From Dictyostelium discoideum (taxonomy: Eukaryota): a DNA stretch of 64,000 bases. The stretch covers positions 3,392,001 through 3,456,000 of the forward strand of contig CM000151.3 of NCBI GenBank assembly GCA_000004695.1, given 5' to 3'. The position numbers and the translations under genes were made by a program. This document shows, one piece after another, positions 18,837 through 34,824 of this stretch. Within the stretch, counting starts at the first letter, position 1. The number at the start of each line of letters is the position of its first letter. A model generated the notes under the pieces. That model had not been told where the DNA came from, searched no databases, and saw only the letters and a program-made list of their open reading frames with translations.

Positions 18837-21800
18837 ATGGATGAAGAAATATTTGATAATCCAATTCAAAAATTAAATTATAATATAAGAACTGAAGAAT
18901 CAGGTTCATTATTAAAATATTTACAATCACAAAAATCAAATTTCACAGATTCTAAAAAATTCATTTCATTTAAACAAAAAGGAAATGATTCAGTTGGAAT
19001 TCGTAAAGAAATCACTCAAAAAAAGTCATTCCCATTAGATAATGGTTTCATTGGTACTGTAGCAGATCCATTCATTGCAATTGCATTTCAAATATCTGAT
19101 AGATTTAATATTGATGAATATTTAGCTTGCAGAATTTTATATTCAGTAGTTGATCATGTATGTAATATTATTAAAAAATAAAAAAAAATAATATTTATAA
19201 ATTTACTAATTTAGTTTTTATATTATTAAAAAAAAAAAAAAAAAAAAAGAGTACCACAAGAGATGAAAAAGAATTAATTGAATTATCAGAAAAATTTATT
19301 TACCAAAATAGATCATGCTATTTACAATTTTTAAGAGAAATATTACATGTAAATTTTATAATAAAAAAAAAAAAAAAAAAAAAAATTAATTAATTAATTA
19401 ATTACTTTTACTAATTAGTTTTTTTTATTTTTTATTTTATCAATATATATTGTAGACATTACAAAGTAGAGATTCTGTTAATGATATTAATCATTCAAAG
19501 ATGAAACATGATATATTACAATCATTTATTGGTGAATTAATTTCAGAGCAAACTAATGATAAGAATATAGTAACAATTTTAATTAAAACATTAGAAGAGA
19601 AAGTTAAAGATATGAATGGTACTGTAAATCCATTAGAATGTTGTTTTAGAGTAAAAGAATGTATTCAAATTGTTGAATGTTTATTTTTAATTTCAATTCA
19701 AGTAAGTATTAATTTATTTTTTTTTTTTAAAAAAAAAAAGATATTAATTTTAAAATTTAAAATTTAAATATTATTAGTTTACAATTAAAGAAGATATTAT
19801 TAAATTATATATCAGAGTTTTAAATCAAGTAATTGAGAAAGAAAAGAGGGAAGATTCAATTTTAAAGAAATCATTATTTGAAATTATGTTTACATTATAT
19901 TTCACAATTTTTGCAGTTTTTGATAATGTTAAAAATAGTCAAGTATTTAATGCAATTGAAAAAAGATATACTTTTAATGAAATTAGTTCAACTGATTCAA
20001 TTGAAAATGAAATTAAACAAATTGATAACCAACATCCAATTAAATCTTCATTATATGCAATTTTTAATATAATTTTAGTATGTAATTTTTTTTTTTTTTT
20101 AAAAAAAATATTTTAAGTTATTATTAATTAACAATTTTTTTTTTTCTTTTTTTTAATAGATTGCAAAAGAAAATAATAATAGTAATAGTAATAGTAATAG
20201 TAATAGTAATAGTAATAGTAATAGTAATAATAATAATAATCGTATTACCCCTGAAAATGATTCATATAAATTCCTTTTACAAGCAGTTCAAACACAAGAA
20301 TATCAATTGTCACCTTTAAATATCCTATTTGGTTCATTTATAAATATTTTATCTTGTAGATTTTTATCAAATTTATCAAGTCACCCAACTAGTATGTATT
20401 TTTATTTTTTTATTTTTTATTTTTTTATTTTTTTATTTTCTAAATTTAAAAAGAAAAAGACATTTTATATTAATATTTTTTATTTTAAAAAAAAATAAAA
20501 TAAGATATGGAATTTATAAATTCATTTAATTTAGTAATGTCAAATATATTTGATAATCATAATAATAGTTCAATTGAATTTTGGAGAATTTGTGAACAAA
20601 TTAATTATTTTCAAAATCTTTGGTTTAGAATTCATGATGATTTAATCATTTCATCATTTAAATTAATGGGGTCATTAGCTAGATGTAATACAAATGAAGT
20701 TTTCAATTTCTTTGCTCAAGGTAGTGCGCAATTTACATGGGCAAAATTATTCCAAAATTTTTCATCCTATGCTCATGCTTTAAATAGTATTGAATTTAGT
20801 CAATCAATTCAATCGAATCAAATGAATTCATCAACGACTACAACTCAACAAATTTCATCAACTCCACAACAACACCAACAACATCAGCAGCAACAACAAC
20901 AACAACAAGGTTATAATAACCAACAAATACCAAATACACCATATCAACAATTCCAACCAACAATGCAATACCAAGGACAACAATCGTCAATGCAACAAAG
21001 TGTAGGACAACAACAACAACCTCAACAACAACCTCAACAACAAAATACACCAAATACACCAAATTCAACAACAAGTTCAAATACAGCAAATACAACATCA
21101 CCTGTAAAGATTACACAATTATTATTATCAGAGAAAGATAGTGATGCACTTTCAAGTATTTTCCAATTGATTTCAAGATTGGTTGAATCTTCAATGGCAG
21201 TTGGAAATGTATTTTTAAAGATTGGACCATTGATTTCATTAGCATTTCAATTTGCAGTATCACAAGTTGATTCAAAATTAAAATCTAGTGCATTATCAGT
21301 GATTACATCATATTCTCAATATCCAATTTATGTAGCTGATATTTGGAGATTAATAAATGAAACCAATCTATTCAATAGTGGTCTTAGTGCAATTGGTGGG
21401 CTAAATGAATTATCTTTCACTCAACAATCATTAGAGTTGTTATTACAATTGATTCAACAATCATCATTCCTATTCGATAAGAGTAATCATTATCAAGAAT
21501 CTTTGAAACTCAAATCCTATTTAGATAGTTGTATGGATTTATTCAATTTATTAAATATAAAATCATTTAATACTTTGGATGAAAAATGGAAATTTGCTTT
21601 AACTTTGATGAAAATATTTGAATTCTCAATCATTCAATTCAATCAATCAATTCAAAATTTTCAAATTGATAAACAACATCCATGTTATCAATTATATATT
21701 GAATTAAATCGTTCTTCTTTATCTAGTAATTTGTATCAACAACAACAACAACAGCAAAATAAATATCAACAGCAACAACAACAACAACAACAAAGTAAAA

Positions 21801-23089
21801 AAACAACATTAGAGAATATTATAAAGATAATTGATTATTCAAATGATCAATCAATATTAATTCAACAACAAATTCAACAACAACAGCAACAACAACAACA
21901 AGGTTATAATCAAGATTCATCAAGAGTAATTTTAAATTTAGTATTCCAACAATTACAACAACAAGATAATGATGATTTTAATTTATTAGTATTGAAATGT
22001 TTAGATTTGTTATTGTTAATCTCTGATAATACAGTTTACGATATTGAAAATGCAAAGAGTTTAGTTGTTAATTTATCAAATATGGATTATAGCAGACCAA
22101 TTGTGTCAATTGCCAAATTGATTGACCATGAATTACCAGCTATTTCATTACGTGCAATTAGATTAATCTATAGTTTCGAATGTTATACTCATCAAATTTC
22201 AACGGTTTTCTTGGATAGTGATCCAAATTTAATACTTTCCAAGTTTATAAAGATGATGGAATTCAATGAATCCAATTTCGAGGATTTCTCTGGTACAAAC
22301 TATGATCAAACCATTTCATTCATTAGATATGCAAGTAATTCCGTACAATGGACAATAGCTCAATTGATTATGTTATGTCTTTCAAATATTAGTAGTGGAA
22401 GATATACATTGGCTCATTTCCTATTGGGTTGTTCATCAAATTTAGATCTTTCAAAGGATTTCATACCAAATAGTAAATCATGTTTAACTTTGATCATAAA
22501 GAATGTTATGAATTCACAATTCGTAGAGAGATATCCACATTTGGTCGATTGTTATCATGAAATCATTTGGAAAATGTCAAGTGATCCAATCACTTGGAAA
22601 CCAATGATCAAATATATTCAAGAGGAATTTCCAAACTATTATCATGATAGTTTATTAATATTAAGAAATGCAATTACAATCAATGGTTCATCAGAGAGAA
22701 GAACTGAAGCATTGATCTCTTCAATGTCATGGGTTTTCAAGACTTGTTCCATTTCAATTCAAAATTCTTATTCAATCGAAATGAAACAATTCTTAACTCG
22801 TTTAATCTTTCCATCATTGATGAACTTAAATCAACCTTCAATGAATGGTGGTATTGGTGGTCTTAATGGTACAATTAATAATGGTTTAATCATGGGTATT
22901 TCACCAATTAATATCTTATCACTCTATAATACAATTGAATTTCAATTACCTGAAATTAATAGACCAAGAATATTTTCAATGTATCCAAATTTAATTGAAT
23001 ATTTTACAACAAATATTAATATTAATAATTTAAATTCAAATAATAATAATAATAATAATAATAACAATAATAATAATAACAATAATAAC

Positions 23090-23159
<70 letters not shown>

Positions 23160-26100
23160 TTACTAATGGTGGTACAAGTCAATTATTAGATATTATTAAA
23201 ATTAGAGAGGTTTTAAAGAATGATTTTAATAGATTTTCAAATGAATTTGAAATTGAAAGAGAATTAGAAGAATGTTGTTTAATTAATTCAAGTATTCAAT
23301 TATATAATAGTAAATTAAAAGCATTAGATGGTTGGAAATCATTTATTAATATTTCTTTAGCTCAAAATACAATTGAAATTGATACATTGGATGAATCATT
23401 ATTATTATCATTATTACAAAGAATAGTTATTGATTTCTCAAATGAACGTAATCCAATTGAATCAACATTATCAATTGGTTATACAATTTTAACCATTTTA
23501 TTCACATTGAAATTGAAAAAAGATAGTTATCAATTATTTATCAATTCTTCACTCACTACCAATAGCACAGATTCAAATGTAATTGAACAAAAGATGAAAT
23601 CAATCTTTGAAGGATTATTACAAACTGTTTTAAAATCACCACATCAAGCAATAAGAGGTATTAGTTATACTTGTTTAATTCAATATTTGGATTTATCAGC
23701 TACAACTCCAACAACTCCATCATTATCACCTTTATCAACCTCAATTAATAATGTCGTTGAAATGAATAATAAAAGTAAAAATAAAAATAATCAAGATAAA
23801 GAACAAGGATATGGTAATTTAAATATTGGTTTAATCATTAGTAAAATTGAAGATAAATTTATTAGAATCTTATCGAGTGATTGTAATTCATTTAGTAGAG
23901 GTTGGAGAATTACCGCTATAAGTTGTATGCAAAGTATTTTATCAATTGACAATCTTTGTGGACATAGATCATTAATGTTTTTACAAAACAAAGGATTCAT
24001 CATCAATATGATCAATGATACTTGTTCAAAATATTTATCAGATAATTGGGAAAACATTGATCCAAAGGATTTACATGTCTATAAATCACAAATGTCCTTA
24101 CTCTTAAAGATTTCTCAACAAATGGATGGTGTTCACCTCTTAATGAATAATAATGTAATTGGTAGTTTTGTTAAATCACCATTTTTAAATTATATTCCAA
24201 CCGATAAAATCTTTGGTAAATTTATAGAGATACTTTTACCAATTTTACAATTATTCGCTTCATTATGTTGTTATTGTAATAATACTTCAAAGAATAATGG
24301 TAATATTAATAATAATAACAATGTTGGTGGTACAGTTTTAATTGGTAGTGATAGAAATGAAATTTATCAAGAATTATTTGATTTCCTTTCAAATCATTCA
24401 GATTTATTCATCATTATTTTATCAGATCAAAGTAGTTTTAGTCATCCAACTTTATCAAGCTTAAAAGTTTTAAAATTAACTTGTTTCTTATTTTCAAAAG
24501 TTTCAAGTTTATTCTTTAAAAAATCAACTACCACCTCTTCTTCAACTTCAACTACAAGTAGCCATAATAGAACACAATTTAATAGATTCCATTATTGTTT
24601 AATTAATTTATTAGTTAAATATTCAGTAAATTCAAAACAAATCATTGAATTGGTTAAACCTGAAAATATTGATGAAGAATTATTAACCGAGAAAATTGAT
24701 TTTAGTTATTTACCAAAGAGTTCAATTGAAAATCAATTTAAGAATATTCCTGATGATATTAATATTGGTGGTGTTAATATTGGTTTAACAAGTAAAAACT
24801 CAAATAATAATAACAATAATAATAATAATAATAATGGTAGCATCAATGGTAAGAAATCAAAGAGAAAGAATCAATTCCAAATTTTAATTAAAGAAACTAT
24901 CACTTCAATCATTCATGATTTATTATTATATTGCAGAAAAGTTTCAATTGTTCAAGATTCAAATTTTGGTTTCGTTTGTTTTAATTCAAATTTAAATATT
25001 TATCAACAATTCCAATCATTTTCAAGTTTAAGATCAACTAATCGTAATAATAGTAATAATAATAATATTAATAATAACAATAATAATAATAGCAACAATA
25101 ATTATAATAATAATAGTATGAATAGTGATATGGATAATGATGATGATAATATAATTAATAATAATAGTTATAAATTTAATAATAAAAATAATAATAATAA
25201 TAATGATAATAATAATCAAAATAAGAATAGTATATTTGGTGGCTTTGGAGTGAATAATAGTATTATCAATGGAAATAATAATAATAATAATGGTAATAAT
25301 AATAATAATAATGGAAATAATGGAGTTAATATTTTACCATCAATTGATTTAGCTATTAATATATTGGTTGATAATATTCTTCAATATTCATTCTATAAGG
25401 TGGATTTAAGTCAATGTTTCAAATTATTACAATCCTATGATCAATTAACCAACTATCAATATCAAGAGATCTTACAAACTGGTGAAGATTATCCTGCATT
25501 TGGCCCAACTCAAAGAAATCATATGGTTGAAAATATTTTGAAAGAGAAAATCATTGATATTGAAACTCAAATCTCTATCATCCATGAAAATATTGAAATC
25601 CTATTGTTATTGATTGTTTCTCATTCTTTCTACTTTTGTAATTCTTTATATTTGTTATTCCAAAATTCAAATAATAATTTCTATAGTAGTGCAATTGGAG
25701 GCACCATAAGTCCAACTTTAGCTAGTAGTGCTTATTATCCAACAACACAACAACAACAACAACAACAACAACAAGGTGGTTCAAATTTAAAGATTACAGA
25801 TTTAAATGCTTCAACAACTACCTCAAACATTAAAAAGAATAATGAATCAGCATTTTTATCTTCAAAAACAAATCAAAATAGTGGTGGTATGTTATCATCA
25901 GTTTTCTCTTACTTTAAAGGTCAACAAAATAATACACCATCAGCTCAGGTATCACAAATTCCAATAAATTCAACACCTTATTCAACAAATTATGCAACTC
26001 CACATCAACATCAACAACTTTTACAACAACAACAACAAAGACAACAACAAATTCAACAACAAATTAATCAAACACCATCAAATGAATTATCTCCACAAGA

Positions 26101-26257
26101 GATTGAAGTATTCCTTAAACGTTTAAAACAATCCATTTTTGAACGTGAAGTTAATCAATTAGGTGGTAAATTATCTGACGTCATTTTAAACCAAATCGAT
26201 AAAAAATCAACTCTCATTGATTTATTATTGAAAAAATTACAAGATTTAACAAAATAA
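18837..26257 (+). CDS. Large protein of about 2300 aa, a Nup205/Nup192-family nucleoporin candidate with poly-Q/poly-N insertions; 6 exons.
   Basis: Exons 18837..19157, 19250..19348, 19456..19701, 19778..20077, 20160..20391 and 20505..26257. All donors are GTATGT/GTAAAT/GTAAGT, acceptors are (T)n-AG, and the reading frame is maintained. N-terminal IAIAFQISDRFNIDEYLACRILYSVVDH resembles the human NUP205 N-terminus EAFILSDLFDIGELAAVELLLAGEHQQ. Gene structure confidence is higher than identity confidence. Confidence 0.55.
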
Positions 26258-27301: not shown

Positions 27302-27526
27302 TTATCTGGCATTTTCATAAGCTTCTGCGCATTCTATTGCACATTTTTTTAATAAATCTCTACATGATGGGAAACTCCAGTTTGCACATTCATATGAATA
27401 ATTTGGTGCATTTTTAACACAACCTATGGCACACTGGGCTTCATTTTGATAATCTCCTATATCTATTGCATTTACATTTGAAAACAATGAGATCACCACT
27501 AAAATTGCTATTAAAATTTTTAACAT
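27302..27526 (-). CDS. Small secreted cysteine-rich protein (74 aa, 8 Cys), hypothetical.
   Basis: Signal peptide MLKILIAILVVISLFSNVNA followed by a CxxxC...C...C..C...C pattern. Dictyostelium codon usage and a single exon. Confidence 0.45.
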   Translation of the reverse strand: MLKILIAILVVISLFSNVNAIDIGDYQNEAQCAIGCVKNAPNYSYECANWSFPSCRDLLKKCAIECAEAYENAR

Positions 27527-28010
27527 GATTTTTTTTATTTTTTTTATTTTTTATCTTTTTTTTTAAAAAACTATTAATATATATATTTAAAGTTTATGAT
27601 ATATTTATTTTTTACCTTTTTAAAATATATTTGTATTTTATAATAAAATAAAAAAAAAAAAAATAGTATCCTTTTTTATATAAAATAAAAAAATTAATTT
27701 AAATTTCCATTTTTAGAATATATTAATTAAAATTGATTTTAATTAAAGTATATTAATTAAAATTGAATTTAAAATATTAAATTTGGGAGATTCGGTTATT
27801 AATGTAAAGTTATTCCCGAAAAATTATTATATTCAGTCTATTCTATCACCACTTTATATATTAAATTCATTTAAATTAAAATGTTTTTTTTTTTTAAAAA
27901 TAACAAATTAATTGTAAATAAAAATAATTTACTTATATTTGTACAAAAATCAAAAGAAATTTCAAAATTCAGAAAAAATAAAATAAAAAGTTATTTGTTT
28001 ATTTTATTTA

Positions 28011-28135
<125 letters not shown>

Positions 28136-28302
28136 TATATAAAATTAAAAAAATTATAAAAAATAATAAAAAAAAAAAAAATTTAAATTGTAATTTTAAT
28201 TAATATTTAATATATGTTTAGTCAATGCATTAAAATGTTGGTGTGCGTAAGGCAACGTAAAATTAAATTTAGTTAATTTAAATCCCACACACCACATTAT
28301 TT

Positions 28303-28342
<40 letters not shown>

Positions 28343-28829
28343 ATTTTCACCCACACAAAACAAGAATTGATTGGAAATTAGAAATCTAAATAATTTTAAA
28401 ATAAATTCCTATTATTTAATAAAATATAAAAAAAATAAAAAAAAATTAAATCACAAATACAACAAAAAAAAAAAAATTAAAATTGTAAAATTAACCAAAG
28501 GTTAAATTAAATTTAGGTCTGTTTTACATTCGACTCACTTGCATATTAATTTTATTTTTTTTTTTTTTTTAAAAATTGTAATTTTATTTTATTTTCACCA
28601 TATATAAACAATTTGTTTTTTTGGATTTGGTTGGCAAAAACTTAAGGGGACTTTTATTTTTATTTTATAATCTGCATATAAAATAAAAATAAAAGTTAAA
28701 AAGTAATTATGTGCTAGTTGGTTGCCTCTTTTTTTTTTTAACACTTTAGTGCTGAAATTTTCAATGAGGTTTGATAAGAAATCCTTTAGAGAAATATTTT
28801 TGAAATTCCTAAATAAAAATTTGCTTGAT

Positions 28830-29275
28830 GATTCAAACTTTATTAAATTACAAATTGATGATCATTCAGTTTACAGTAGATTTTTAAAAAGAGGGCCATC
28901 GTTGATGATCTTGTAGTTAGTGTTGATAATATTTTACTTGATGATTCAATGAATACAATTGATTCAATGAATACAATTGAATCAAATACACATGCTCAAC
29001 AATCCTATATTGGTATAATAATTCCACATTATAGTGAATCTGTATCGATTGATCCTGATTTTCACTTTTAATCGACCAAAATGCGGCATCACAATCAAGT
29101 GAAAATTCAATATGTTCAAAGAAATCTGGTTTAACAAAAGGTCAAATCGCTGGTATTACAATTGGTTCTGTTTGCTTTGCAACTGTAATTGTTGTTAGTA
29201 TTGTTTACTCTGTTCACAAAACAAAGAAAAACAAAAAATGCAAGGAAATTAGAAGCCTTTAGTAAATAAAAAAAA
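28830..29275 (+). pseudogene. Degenerate partial copy (about 430 bp, about 93% identity) of the 3' end (TM plus cytoplasmic tail) of the EGF/TM surface-protein gene at 34132..34565.
   Basis: Alignable to 34132-34575 with frameshifts, an 18-bp internal duplication (gattcaatgaatacaatt x2), a roughly 13-bp deletion, and no upstream exons. Same orientation, 5.3 kb upstream of the parent. Confidence 0.8.
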
Positions 29276-29346
29276 AAATAAGAAAAAATTAAAAAATATC
29301 AGGAAAATTGGATACAGGACGCGTTTTTTAAAAATATCTTTCGTTT

Positions 29347-29379
<33 letters not shown>

Positions 29380-29743
29380 TTACAATTTTTCCAAATAACT
29401 GATTCTTTTAAAACAAAAAAAAAAAAAAAAAAATAAAAAAAAATAAAATTAAATAAATAAAAAAAAAAAATGCAATCTAATTAATTAATCTAGATAAAGC
29501 AACGAATTTTGTGTGAAAGAAATTAATAAAATAAAAGAAATAGTAAAGATTTTCAATTTGAAAAAATATCTTTAGCTGGGTTTTTTCGAGCTCGAAAAAA
29601 TATCTTTTATTTACTTCTTTTTTTTTTTTCAACTTCTTTCCTACGAAAAAAAAAAAAAAAAAAAAAAAATTATCATTAAATAGAAAATAAATAGAAAAAT
29701 AAATAAATAGAAAAATAAATATAAAATAAATTATTTTTAAAAA

Positions 29744-31395
29744 ATGAAATTTTTTTATTTATTTTTTTATATATTATTAATAAATTTTGGATTTATTAAA
29801 TCGCAATTTATATTAACAGATATTACTCCAAATAATCTATTAATAAGTTACCCTCAATATTTGACACAAAGCGTTTGTGGTGTTTATCATTATATTTTAG
29901 TAAATAATTCTACTCAACAATCCAATATAGATAATTTATTTCCAGCTAGTTTTTTTTTAACTTCAACCAGTGATTTTAGTCTTTATAGCCATTTTGAGTA
30001 TTTAAACATTGGGGAAACAAAAAATATTATTTTTACAGTTAATGATGGTAATCAAAACAATGGATATTTAAATGTTAGTTATATTTGCAAAGGTAATTAT
30101 TTTATTTTTTTTCATTTATTTTTATTTTTTTTTTTCATTTATTTTATTTTATTTTTTAAACAAATAATTTTTTTTATTATTATTTATTTTTTATTTTTTT
30201 TTAATTAAATTTTTATCCTTTTTTTTTTATTTTTTTTTATTAATATCTTTTTTAAATTCTACATTTCAAAATAAAATTTAAATAGAGGTTGAAGTATCAT
30301 TAGTAACAATAGATATTATTCAAGAGGTTACTTGGAATGATGTTTATAAATATTCATCAATTGTAAGATTAAATGGAGTACCAGATGAAAGTACAATGCC
30401 TGAGAGTGATTTTGCGACATTAAATAGAATGGGAAACTCTCAATACCGAATTTTATATAGTGAAAATTATTATTTAAAAATTGCACCAAATTCAAATATA
30501 TGGGATATTGATTTAAAATTTACAAGTAATCAAGTTTTAAAAGTTTCAGTACCATTTAATCTTTTAGGTAAGTTTAATATAAATCAATATATATATTAAA
30601 AAAATAAAAAAAATAATAATAATATTAATATTAACAATCAAATTTTTTTATTATAAAAGATCCAATTATTTCAATAACTGATATTCAAGAATACAAGTGG
30701 AGAGACCTTCGATACAATGCTTTGTATGGTACTGGAATTGAATTCACATCAAATTCATCAATTCAAAGACCAGTTTATTCTTTTGAAAGTAGTCCGTTCT
30801 ACTTTACTCCTAAACCAATATCTGGTGTAAAAGGTAAGGTTAAATATTTCGTTAACCCAATGCCACTTTTGTTTGGAGAACAAAATTTTAATTTTTATTC
30901 CCAAAAGGAGGATAACTCATTCAAGAATGATTTCAATTCAACATTTAATTTCCAAAGTAAGTTTTTTAATATTTTTAAATTTTAAATTTTAATATTCTTA
31001 TGATTTTAAACTAATAAACCATACAAACTATCTATTAGTAACAACTTCAAATCCATTGGGTACACCAACCGTTAGCCTTGATAATACCACAACATCAAAT
31101 TTTATAACTGTAAAGTTTAATGGTTTTTCCAGATATGATTTTAAAACTTTGACTTGTAATTTCAAACAAATATTTGATTCTGGTTTTATTTATGATTTCC
31201 CATTTGGATTTATTAATGGTAACAATGATAATAATCAAATGAGTATTTCCACTCCTATTTCACCTAAATCATTTCAACAAAGTTTTTCTTGGAACTGTGG
31301 TTCATCATTTGTTGAAGTAAATAAAGATTTTTATAAAATTGGTATGATATAATTAATACTTTTGTTTCTTTTTTATTAAAAATTAACTAACAGAG

Positions 31396-31431
<36 letters not shown>

Positions 31432-31864
31432 TAATTAGTCAATGGAAGTCTAGGAAAGATTACATCTGTTGAAAGGATTAATATTTTCCAATTTTCATTT
31501 TTAGTCATTTTTAAAGCTCAAGATGATGTAGGTGTTAAATATATCGATCATATTATAGATGGTGTTTATTTAAGATTTGGATCTCAAAATTTAGTATCAG
31601 GTAATAATTTAAATGGTGCTTGGGAATATGTGCATGATGGAGTAAACTTGGGAATTGATACCCAAAATGCAGTTTCACTTATTAATGAATTGGATTTAAA
31701 AACAACTTATACCCCATTATATCCATTTTCAATTACCAATCCTGATCAAATTATGATTTTACCTGGAATTCAATTAAATAGTAAGTTATAAATATATTAA
31801 TATATACTATTAAGATGTAAATTTAAAAAGAAATGGTTTAAAATATTAATTTTTAAATTTTATT

Positions 31865-31899
<35 letters not shown>

Positions 31900-34565
31900 T
31901 AAAAATAGATACAGTAAATTATTATAAAGATTTAAAAAATATTTCATTCTTATTTAATAATGTCCATGTTACAAATCAAAGTGTAGATAATATAATGTAT
32001 TTTACATTTGATAATATTGAAAATTATAAAAATTTAGCAATTGGTTTTTCATTATCTGAACCAAAAACATTAAAAGATAATAATGCACAAACAGATTATT
32101 CCTTAAAGTACAGCCCTAATTATAAATTTGCAAAATGGGATGAATCAAATAGTAGATTTAGTGTAATGTTTAAAATGCCAGCAAATATAGTACCAGGTGT
32201 GTTGGATTGGACTTTAACATTTGCCAAATATAATACACTCATAAACACAGCATTACCAGATAAATATCAATTAAATATAATTTCAGAGAATATTGATATT
32301 GTAGGTCCAATAGTTACAAAAATAGTTAAAAAATCGCAATCAGATTTTGGAACATCAAATGTTGGTTGGTTATTAACAATTGAAGATGAAATTAATGGAT
32401 TTTTAAATGGTTTTGTAACTGTTAAAGGTAGTTTAGATTCGTCAGTATATAATTTTTCAATTTCACCTTCAACAGCTGTTAGAGGAAGTGGAGATAAATG
32501 GAAAGCAGATTATTTAATTTCAATACCATTACAAGATAATTTAAATAACTATGGTTGTATTGCTCAAGATTATATTATAGTCAATGCTTATCTTGGCGAT
32601 ACATTTGGTAATGTAAATAATTATATGGCTGTGCTTGATAATGAAAGAGTTCTAAGTCCTCTTAGCATTGTTTCAGTTGTCAATCCATTTTACCTTTTAC
32701 CATATGAATCATTGACACTTTCAGTAGATAGCACAAATTGTAGCACAGCATTAGATACATCTCCACCAACTTTAATTAGTTTTACAGCATCAAAAACAAA
32801 TATTGATGTTGGTTCTCAAGATAGATCAATTACTTTTAATTTCAAAGCACAAGATTTAGATAGTGGTTTAAAGAATAACCAATTTCCAGCTATTTATTTA
32901 ATTGATGAAAATTTAGGTTCAGTAGAATGCATTTCAAAAATTGAATCAAGAACATCAACAGATGCAGAATATTCATGTACAGTTGAAATACCAGTTGGCT
33001 TTGGTTATCCACTCGGATTTACAGTTTCAGTTTATGGTTTCATTAATAATGGTGGCTATTATTCAGGCTATTCAAGTGATTTACTTAAATCTATGGGTTC
33101 AACTGCATGGTTTATTACAACTGATCAATTTTCAATGGATATTCCAATTATAAAATCTTCAACAGGTATAACAAATCAAGGAGGTGATATATTGTTACAG
33201 GGTAGAGGTTTCTCTTCAATAGATACTGTTAATATTGTTTACTATGATTCCCAATTAGTATCTCAACCAATTACAGGTAATAGATACAATAGTGCCTTAG
33301 TAATTACAGGTATCAAACCAACAAATCAATCATTCACAGTTCAACTTTTAAATTCATTACAACCAGTCAAAAAATCAAACATTATTACAATTACACCAGA
33401 ACTATACTTTTTCAACTACACTGACCCAGTTCCAACTCAACCTCCAACTAAACCTCCAACTCAACCTCCAACAAAATCACCAATTCCAACAAATCCACCT
33501 CAAAAATGTTTAGGTAACCCAGAATGTGGTGGAGAAAATCAAGGTGTTTGTACAAAGAATGGTTGTGTTTGTATAACTCCATATTATGGTAAAGATTGTA
33601 GTTCAAAACTCTTAGAAGTTATACCACCAATAATTAATGGAAGTAATCCATCAATAGAAATTCCAATTCCAGGTGATAATGGTGGTGGTTCTTCTACGAC
33701 CACTGGCGGTAATCCAAACTTACCACCACAAATTATTTACAAATCATTAATTTCAATTGTTTCATTAAGAGAATTAGATTTCAATGGTAATCCAATCAAA
33801 ACCATTCCATTAAATACATGGTCATTTAAAGAAATAAACTCAAATACTAGTAGATACGATACAACAATTTCAATTGAAGGTAAAGATGAAAAAGTTAATG
33901 TTACAACAACAATGCAATGGTTTTCAAAAACTTCAAGCGTTACATTCGCAGGTCAACAATTAACAATGAATCCATCATCAATTAAATTCAATGTTGATAT
34001 TACAAATTACCCATTCTCATCAGCATTAAATCAACTCCAATTGGTAATGTCTGCAACATTACTTTCCACAGGTGATAATAGCAATGATGATGTATGTTCC
34101 TCAAAATCATTTGGTGATACCACAAATGGTGACGATTCAAACTTTATTAAATTACAAATTGATGATCATTCCGTTTACGGTAGATTTTTAAAAAGAGCTA
34201 TCGTTGATGATCTTGTAGTTAGCGTTGACAATGTTTTACTTGATGATTCAATGAATACAATTGAATCAAATACACATGCTCAACAATCCTATATTGGTAT
34301 AATAATTCCACATTATAGTGAATCTGTATCGATTGATCCTGATTTTTCACTTTTAATCGACCAAAATGCGGCATCACAATCAAGTGAAAATTCAATATGT
34401 TCAAAGAAATCTGGTTTAACAAAAGGTCAAATCGCTGGTATTGCTATTGGTGCTGCAGGTTTTGCAACTGTAATTGTTGTTAGTATTGTTTACTCTGTTC
34501 ACAAAACAAAGAAAAACAAAAAATTTGCTGTTTCAATGTCAAAGAAATTAGGAGCTTTAAATTAG
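29744..34565 (+). CDS. Type I transmembrane surface glycoprotein of about 1400 aa with a signal peptide, a Pro/Thr-rich stalk, an EGF-like Cys module, a single C-terminal TM and a short basic tail; 6 exons.
   Basis: Exons 29744..30092, 30286..30567, 30660..30956, 31039..31341, 31439..31780 and 31909..34565; every intron is phase 1. Signal peptide MKFFYLFFYILLINFGFIKS; stalk PTQPPTKPPTQPPTKSPIPTNPPQ; EGF-like CLGNPECGGENQGVCTKNGCVCITPYYGKDCS; TM GIAIGAAGFATVIVVSIVYSV; tail HKTKKNKK. Possible IPT/Tgr-like relationship is unverified. The first acceptor could alternatively be the next in-frame AG (aatag, about 27 nt downstream). Confidence 0.7.
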
Positions 34566-34824
34566 ATATAAAAATAAATAAAATAAAAAAAACTATCGAT
34601 TATAGGAAAATTTTTCACTATAATCAATCACTAAAACTATTTTTAGATTTTTTTTTTTTTTTTTATTAAATTACCAAAAAAAAAAAGTAAATTATCATAA
34701 ACTTAAAACAAAAAAAAAAAATTTTAACCAATTTCTGGTAAATTAGAATATTTGCATTCAAAATTAAATGAAACAATTTGATTGGTTATCTCGAAAAGGA
34801 ATTGAAAATAAAAATTATTAAAAA

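Follow-up and report, generated by a model that had tools for sequence, protein, structure and literature searches.

A truncated ComC-family pseudogene upstream of its live parent gene in Dictyostelium discoideum, probably the remnant of a tandem paralog

The window analysed in this study is a stretch of 64,000 nucleotides of the Dictyostelium discoideum genome (assembly GCA_000004695.1, contig CM000151.3, positions 3,392,001 to 3,456,000 of the forward strand), in which a gene of the ComC family of surface proteins is preceded, about 480 bp upstream of its ATG, by a degenerate copy of its own 3' end. This copy is referred to below as the relic and the intact gene as the parent gene; the relic and the 3' end of the gene form direct repeats 5.3 kb apart. 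The parent gene encodes a protein with a signal peptide, the domains DUF7035 (113 bits), DUF7034 (124 bits), EGF-like DUF7949 (58 bits) and ComC supersandwich (ComC_SSD, 74 bits), all scoring above the Pfam gathering scores, followed by a transmembrane (TM) helix and a short basic tail, and its product is 100% identical to KAM9952192.1. The locus has conserved synteny, comprising a Nup192-like gene, the ComC-family gene, Polyketide_cyc, NDK and Zip. The window has a G+C content of about 22%, with poly-A/T runs between the genes and poly-N/Q tracts within coding sequences. The gene, the relic and the main lesions of the relic are located as follows.

29744 to 34565, plus strand: live parent gene of six exons, encoding 1409 aa (KAM9952192.1, ACTFIT_002884)
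34130 to 34565, plus strand: segment of the gene homologous to the relic, at the end of the last exon; 95.7% identity
28826 to 29265, plus strand: coding-derived part of the relic (a truncated pseudogene), homologous to the final ~145 codons of the ComC-family gene downstream
28893 to 28894, plus strand: 2-bp insertion (GG) causing a frameshift and a stop at 28914-28916; absent in the copies of D. discoideum strain ACTFIR and D. citrinum
28942 to 28959, plus strand: 18-bp in-frame tandem duplication (TGATTCAATGAATACAAT), with the near-repeat TGATTCAA/TGAATCAA on its flanks; absent from all other copies and genes
29158 to 29265, plus strand: 3' part of the relic with the TM helix and tail, diverged from the gene (86% identity), keeping states of the upstream paralog and containing a 14-bp deletion
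29266 to 29430, plus strand: 3' flank of the relic, with weak homology to the 3' flank of the gene (34566-34730)

The relic (28826-29262, plus strand) is colinear with positions 34130-34560 of the plus strand, and 398 of the 416 aligned bases are identical. This confirms a preliminary description of the locus, which had reported a degenerate copy of the 3' end of the gene, and the identity is well over the threshold of 80% that it had named. In a masked self-BLAST of the region 26.3-36 kb against the whole window, used in place of a generic repeat finder that had been swamped by low complexity, the relic and the gene gave the sole substantial match that is not of low complexity (E=2e-176). The coverage described earlier (last extracellular segment, TM helix and cytoplasmic tail) agrees with the domain positions, since the relic covers the last ~75 residues, or last third, of the ComC supersandwich domain, the linker, the TM helix and the short basic tail. 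No Pfam match was found for the frame-repaired translation of the relic alone, and the relic is therefore assigned to the ComC family because of its homology to the parent. In tblastn its translation is broken into three high-scoring segment pairs in three different frames, with an early stop.

Compared to the 3' end of the parent gene, the relic is 4.3% diverged and carries five copy-specific indels (+2, +18 tandem, -1, -14, +1): the GG insertion, the 18-bp duplication, a 1-bp deletion within a T-run at 29059, a 14-bp deletion after 29239 and a 1-bp insertion at 29256. The GG frameshift is specific to the lineage of the window, and the 18-bp duplication is typical of replication slippage. The earlier list of lesions had recognized this duplication correctly, but had missed the two 1-bp indels; what it took for a 1-bp frameshift at RGPSLMIL is a net gain of 2 bp (the GG) plus a T>C change, and the deletion near the stop, given as roughly 13 bp, measures 14 bp. 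The substitutions, described as scattered, are in fact strongly clustered, with none across 208 aligned sites and seven within 18 bp of the TM helix (29158-29175). With its 5' part and start codon lost and disabling lesions present, the relic is a truncated, disabled pseudogene of the adjacent EGF/TM (ComC-family) gene, as had been proposed, and one of the non-processed type.

Beyond the stop of the relic, colinear similarity to the gene can be followed for ~160 bp, with a local score of 45 against 26 +/- 6.8 in AT-rich controls, of which ~1% reach 45. The homology thus probably extends into the 3' flank, suggesting that the duplicated unit took in the terminator region. Upstream of 28826, no homology and no remnants of the rest of the gene could be identified in the window by blastn, tblastn or Smith-Waterman searches. 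For a test of retrocopy origin, intron loss is not informative, the relic being confined to a single exon, nor are A-runs, which occur everywhere in this genome. The tandem position, the probable homology into the 3' flank and the introns in the upstream paralog of D. firmibasis (see below) argue against a retrocopy origin. No tRNA genes, as possible retrotransposon targets, were found in the window.

Orthologous loci in other genomes were reached through relatives of the parent protein. A protein search with the repaired relic gave one match, to a relic in D. firmibasis; as a single match is unable to rank paralogs, these were ranked from the fetched loci. The upstream copy is found in the following states.

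D. discoideum, lineage of the window (28826 to 29265, plus strand): relic of ~440 bp
D. discoideum strain ACTFIR (L002 9936 to 10500): copy in the same position, extended by ~111 bp on the 5' side; the exons of this strain differ from those of the window by 4.5%
D. citrinum (L003 1 to 1797): a single open frame that runs on from the contig edge for 599 codons, up to a homologously placed stop
D. firmibasis (L005 and L007): complete intron-containing upstream paralog and three relics

The comparison of strains and species suggested in the preliminary description thus revealed the copy in ACTFIR, D. citrinum and D. firmibasis, but no relic in D. dimigraforme (L004); neither was a relic found at an unlinked paralog of 67% identity (L006). 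The upstream copy of D. citrinum contains DUF7034, DUF7949 and ComC_SSD above the Pfam thresholds, as well as a proper TM helix and tail. The upstream paralog of D. firmibasis occupies 4726 bp for 1413 aa, i.e. it has introns. Of the relics in this species, the first lies between Nup192 and the upstream paralog, another is a shredded copy, and the third is a C-terminal piece of 165-225 bp just upstream of the syntenic gene. The local duplication activity that had been proposed for this locus is supported.

The TM helix provides a signature by which upstream and downstream copies can be distinguished. It reads GITIGSVCFA in the relic of the window and GIAIGAVCFA in the upstream copy of D. citrinum, against AAGF in all downstream genes, and the Val of the VCF signature is also present in the upstream copies of D. 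firmibasis. The DNA between the relic and the gene is orthologous as well (90% identity with z=26 for the window and ACTFIR, z=8.1 for the window and D. citrinum). Taken together, the TM signature, the orthology of this spacer and the presence of copies at the same place indicate that the segment in the window is the positional ortholog of an upstream tandem paralog.

On its 5' side the relic is bordered by the following two features, the second of which reaches into the relic.

27669 to 28825, no strand assigned: AT-rich block of 1157 bp adjoining the 5' end of the relic; absent at this place in ACTFIR, which has ~111 bp more of the relic there instead
28764 to 28916, plus strand: ATG-initiated ORF (open reading frame) of 50 aa, predicted from sequence only, running from the flank into the relic

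The ACTFIR copy continues ~111 bp past the 5' boundary seen in the window, and that of D. citrinum at least 1.36 kb in an open frame. As both read through the boundary, the 5' end in the window does not mark a duplication junction but a later truncation, specific to this lineage. The left flank is orthologous to ACTFIR up to window position 27668; the ACTFIR relic adjoins the flank of a small Cys-rich ORF, and this flank is orthologous to window 27338-27668. Within the AT-rich block are a (TAT)n tract (28022-28158) and an internal repeat of ~230 bp, 28121-28351 resembling 28410-28599, and the part 28116-28334 is 76% identical to L002 8907-9115, in the intergenic region of ACTFIR. The block is thus partly homologous to sequence elsewhere in the ACTFIR intergenic region, which indicates that the region left of the relic is itself a rearranging repeat array; for the same reason a foreign insertion of 1.16 kb was rejected in favour of a rearranged local repeat. 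An ORF spanning the boundary does exist, as described earlier, but its start at 28722 is a TTG, which is not a normal eukaryotic start, and only the shorter version at 28764-28916 begins with ATG.

On its 3' side the relic directly adjoins the upstream region of the live gene.

29276 to 29743, plus strand: spacer of 468 bp that separates the relic from the live gene and forms the upstream/promoter region of the latter; orthologous spacers in ACTFIR and D. citrinum

The motif AAAAATATCTTT occurs three times in this spacer (29330, 29562, 29596), out of five copies in the window where 0.7 are expected, and ACTFIR and D. citrinum share a conserved G/C-containing island, AAAAAATATCTNTAGCTGGGTTTT (29561-29584), at ~180-220 bp upstream of the ATG. 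These sequences are likely to represent a promoter element.

The distribution of identity between relic and gene is mosaic, and two segments are of particular relevance.

28932 to 29157, plus strand: tract of perfect identity with the gene over 208 aligned sites, broken only by the 18-bp duplication and the 1-bp deletion at 29059; putative gene-conversion tract
34361 to 34377, plus strand: three derived states C, G and C in the gene (34361, 34370 and 34377, the last giving K>Q); candidate patch transferred from relic to gene

Seven substitutions fall in the first 106 bp and none in the next 208 sites, a run with a probability of 5e-5 if the 18 substitutions had been placed uniformly. The region of the perfect tract differs at ~10% of sites between species, i.e. 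it is not slow-evolving. The same gradient is seen in the other species: identity before the TM helix versus in the TM helix and tail is 97.0 versus 86.2% in the window, 96.4 versus 80.0% in D. citrinum, and 99.0 versus 92.3% in D. firmibasis. The two tandem copies of D. citrinum have an overall identity of 94.4%, in which perfect runs, the longest of 394 bp, are broken by blocks of 77-87% and the tail has 68-83%; for the pair of D. firmibasis the identity is 72-94% over the 5' half and 96-100% over the 3' half; the perfect runs in these intact pairs measure 394 and 419 bp. In the quartet formed by copy and gene of the window and of D. citrinum, 23 sites group the copy with the gene of the same genome, five pair the two copies (every one within the TM helix and tail) and none supports the third arrangement; the quartet of ACTFIR and D. 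citrinum gives 19 : 1 : 1. A comparison of the two D. discoideum lineages groups relic with relic, as orthologs (5 versus 2 versus 1). These site patterns and tract lengths indicate repeated non-allelic gene conversion with an edge effect, in which the middle would be homogenized and the edges left to diverge. As conversion keeps the copies alike, the high identity does not date the duplication. A very recent conversion, as judged by a clustering in the relic of differences between the window and ACTFIT, was considered and rejected, as these differences consist of homopolymer lengths and one distant single-nucleotide polymorphism (SNP).

We consider it quite probable that the relic is what erosion has left of the 3' end of a tandem paralog located upstream of the adjacent ComC-family surface-protein gene, and that gene conversion has kept it partly similar to that gene. 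A single tandem duplication cannot put a 3' fragment upstream of its own parent, but a duplication of the whole gene followed by a 5' deletion can. The positional orthology and the shared paralog-specific states suggest that such a whole-gene tandem duplication took place before D. discoideum and D. citrinum split. In the D. discoideum lineage, before the two strains diverged, a deletion would then have taken the promoter and about 4 kb of the upstream copy, as suggested by the shared left flank, leaving ~550 bp and the 3' flank beside the promoter of the live gene. In the lineage of the window a further rearrangement appears, from the comparison with ACTFIR, to have trimmed another ~111 bp. 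The lineage-specific frameshifts and the slippage duplication are shown by the sequences, and the site patterns and the tract statistic point to recurrent gene conversion between relic and live gene. The 3' end of the relic may have survived because it adjoins the promoter of the live gene, such that deletions reaching further would be selected against.

Several other explanations of the relic have to be weighed against this one. That it is an assembly artefact, with mis-placed or duplicated reads, had been raised in the preliminary description and is refuted by an independent long-read D. discoideum assembly, GCA_054883475.1, in which the relic is base-for-base identical; over 24.8 kb the window and contig JBTAPE010000001.1 of that assembly differ by homopolymer lengths and one SNP. 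Orthologous, independently mutated copies are present in three other genomes (L001, L002, L003), and the 4.3% divergence and five private indels equally speak against an artefact, which we regard as practically excluded. The relic could also be functional, as an alternative 5' exon, through the small ORF at 28764-28916, or as a selected regulatory or antisense RNA or promoter module. It persists beside the promoter in several lineages, one of the D. firmibasis relics has been annotated as a 100-aa protein, and an automatic gene model of ACTFIR (ACTFIR_009605 / KAM9957498.1, 1467 aa, GCA_054859385.1; L002 10001-10942) begins in the relic and splices relic-derived exons onto the gene. This model skips the intact ATG and signal peptide at L002 10943, and is for that reason probably a gene-prediction artefact. 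Moreover, the relic lacks a start codon, 5' exons and a promoter of its own. Not one indel is common to the relics of the window and ACTFIR, each lineage having its own frameshifts, and the divergence between the two relics is 8.1%, compared to 4.5% for exons, 5.4-6.2% for third codon positions, 5.8% for introns and 9.9% for the spacer. Such neutral-like divergence implies that there is no detectable constraint on the relic. Also counting against a function are the missing Pfam match of the repaired translation, the lack of Rfam family matches other than sub-threshold noise, and the lack of gene calls for the 28764-28916 ORF or another relic ORF on record in NCBI and the Logan assemblies; the relic is likewise not annotated in the two D. 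discoideum assemblies at NCBI that were examined. Judged from its sequence, the relic is non-functional, and any of the functional roles mentioned is very unlikely.

The remaining alternatives concern the way in which the relic arose. The preliminary description had suggested a microhomology-mediated duplication (by template switch or microhomology-mediated break-induced replication, MMBIR) of only ~430 bp to a site 5.3 kb upstream, with the present boundary as junction, which would be a hybrid of two sites in the parent gene. It is true that CTTGATGATTCAA at the junction recurs 110 bp inside the copy and in the gene, and that 10 of 13 bases farther upstream of the junction resemble, by inspection only, the sequence upstream of the second site. 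The orthologous copies of ACTFIR and D. citrinum read through this junction, though, the left flank in the window is a lineage-specific block, and the homology seems to extend into the 3' flank. Furthermore, TGATGATTCAA is simply the ancestral state at the homologous site in every other gene and copy, the live gene of the window having a derived T>C (TGACGATTCAA). The apparent hybrid is thereby mostly explained by ancestry, and only the 2-3 bases (CT) beyond TGATGATTCAA that match the second parent site are left as possible microhomology; a duplication of this kind is highly improbable. A different order of events, in which a short C-terminal relic is old and predates the D. firmibasis split, and unequal crossing-over with the 3' end of the gene regenerates and deletes full-length upstream paralogs (relic, regenerated gene, gene), appears unlikely, although it accounts for several observations. 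The long copy of D. citrinum and the upstream paralog of D. firmibasis would then be secondary, with TM helices and tails derived from the relic, which agrees with the order of elements in D. firmibasis (relic, gene, shreds and relic, gene) and with the relic-type TM helices and tails on upstream copies whose bodies are almost identical to the downstream gene. It also agrees with the coincidence of the 5' boundary in the window with the junction of a D. firmibasis relic, and with the resemblance of the window spacer to that between fragB, the short relic directly upstream of the syntenic gene, and the gene in D. firmibasis (z=3.5). Against such an order speaks the ACTFIR relic, the additional 111 bp of which are sequence that a short relic would not hold, so that an extra templated-repair event is needed; regeneration of open genes would in addition require a lesion-free relic at each event, and old tandem paralogs with edge-effect conversion predict the same mosaic. 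Nor does the flank in the window hold any trace of a junction of the D. firmibasis type, or of shared ancestry with it: its best matches are to AT-rich intron DNA. Some points nevertheless weigh against an eroded tandem paralog. The internal-deletion junction of the D. firmibasis relic, which joins …IVEVLPPVING to DDSNF… between two AAYGGT microhomologies, lies within a few bases of window 28826. The contig of D. citrinum ends within the upstream copy, which may be intact but is covered only downstream of its 5' half. With the usual species tree, the absence of a relic in D. dimigraforme requires complete loss there or independent origins of the D. firmibasis array. As the element directly upstream of the syntenic gene in D. 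firmibasis is a short relic, the relic state could be older and the long copy of D. citrinum secondary. Finally, selection acting heterogeneously along the live gene could contribute to the unevenness of the identity, but the perfect tract is not especially conserved between species.

Both junctions mentioned above (window 28826 and, in the merged D. firmibasis sequence, ~9893) are located just 5' of TGATGATTCAAACTT, and their near-coincidence possibly reflects chance or a local fragile site. The D. citrinum contig (JBTAPK010000018.1) ends at L003 position 1 inside the upstream paralog, which looks like a break at a near-identical tandem repeat.

Whether the relic is more than a passive remnant can be considered from the patch at 34361-34377. 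The C, G and C states are common to the live gene of the window and both D. discoideum relics, and are not found in the ACTFIR gene or the outgroups (QNAASQ versus QNAASK). They may hint at a transfer from relic to gene, with which they are compatible, while sorting of an ancestral polymorphism or reversal are also possible. By extension, the relic could be an active recombination partner, donating sequence to the membrane-proximal, TM and tail region of the gene, and either expanding the locus to relic-gene-gene or losing the gene through unequal crossing-over. We regard this as a doubtful, though not negligible, proposal. If true, it would explain why three species show recurrent C-terminal relics upstream of intact genes, why upstream full-length copies have relic-type tails, and why an annotated ortholog is missing in several assemblies belonging to the discoideum clade and the citrinum clade.

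With respect to the latter, among the matches of the parent protein there is no AX4-labelled protein, nor one of ACTFIW, ACTFIY, ACTFIZ or ACTFIV, that is more than 48% identical. The parent gene may be unannotated, flagged as a pseudogene or absent in these genomes, and loss of the whole gene by recombination between the relic and the 3' end of the gene would be one explanation for the missing proteins.

Some other features of the neighbourhood were observed. A large upstream ORF (20507-26257, plus strand) is part of a Nup192-like gene of ~2300 aa, identified by the Pfam Nup192 match of the D. firmibasis ortholog, and contains poly-N and poly-Q tracts of great length. The (AAT)n tracts of this ORF are reverse-complementary to the (TAT)n tract at 28022-28158, and were the source of spurious "inverted repeats" in the repeat finder. 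The small Cys-rich ORF (27302-27526, minus strand) is intact, and its 74 codons predict a signal peptide and six cysteines, as in a small protein of the secreted type. It is unannotated in GCA_054883475.1 and GCA_054859385.1, and has neither a Pfam match nor a record in the gene-position index. In ACTFIR the ortholog (L002 9785-9576, 61% identity) is interrupted by an in-frame stop, and another copy, which has diverged, is found at L002 8772-8581. The protein RB653_010561 of D. firmibasis (L007 10001-10303), a "hypothetical protein" of 100 aa, corresponds to the ORF of the C-terminal ComC-type relic that is located between the Nup192-like gene and the upstream paralog, and further upstream this relic is shredded by internal deletions.

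The relic resembles the non-processed, truncated pseudogenes of birth-and-death families, in that it is a genomic duplicate of a neighbouring gene which has lost its 5' end and promoter, has acquired frameshifts and drifts neutrally, and in that intact, shredded and absent states occur at one locus in sister genomes. It is unlike typical truncated pseudogenes in that only the extreme 3' end survives, directly against the promoter of a live gene; this end has probably been spared as a side effect of selection against deletions extending into the promoter. Gene conversion with a linked pseudogene is known from human CYP21A2/CYP21A1P and GBA/GBAP1, and from globin and immunoglobulin V pseudogenes. 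Features shared with cases of the CYP21A2/CYP21A1P type are the mosaic identity, a long perfect tract with diverged edges, copies within a genome that are closer than orthologs, and a few sites pointing from pseudogene to gene. Differences are that the homology block is very short (~0.45-0.6 kb), that it occurs in a haploid social amoeba whose genome is extremely AT-rich, and that the direction and consequences of conversion are here only candidate.

Within Dictyostelium, the tgr family consists of rapidly diversifying genes for surface proteins, with many pseudogenes and truncated copies, duplication and recombination, and a hypermutable hotspot has been reported for it (PMC12745789). The present family has in common with tgr the organisms, the single-pass surface proteins, the lineage-specific changes in copy number and the truncated copies. 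It has ComC-type domains and not TIG repeats, and the likeness drawn here is one of copy number and truncation, rather than of hypermutation or allorecognition. ComC is restricted to group 4 dictyostelids, and the family consists of EGF/TM proteins (PMC4931340; Pfam PF22933). The parent gene possesses all domains of this family, along with signal peptide and TM helix, but it is an uncharacterized paralog and not comC itself, and the relic keeps only the last third of the supersandwich domain.

The feature described here is an ordinary kind of genome evolution, known in general and cleanly documented at this locus. For annotation, the relic should be flagged as a pseudogene fragment, as such relics mislead gene predictors: ACTFIR_009605 loses its real signal peptide, and in RB653_010561 the ORF of a relic is annotated as a protein. 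High identity between a fragment and its neighbour need not mean that the duplication is recent. The locus provides a compact example of birth-and-death evolution and gene conversion in a surface-protein family of Dictyostelium, with stages across five genomes that range from an intact pair, via a long copy, a 550-bp relic and a 440-bp relic, to none. If the transfer from relic to gene is true, it would represent small-scale, pseudogene-templated variation of a cell-surface protein in a social amoeba.

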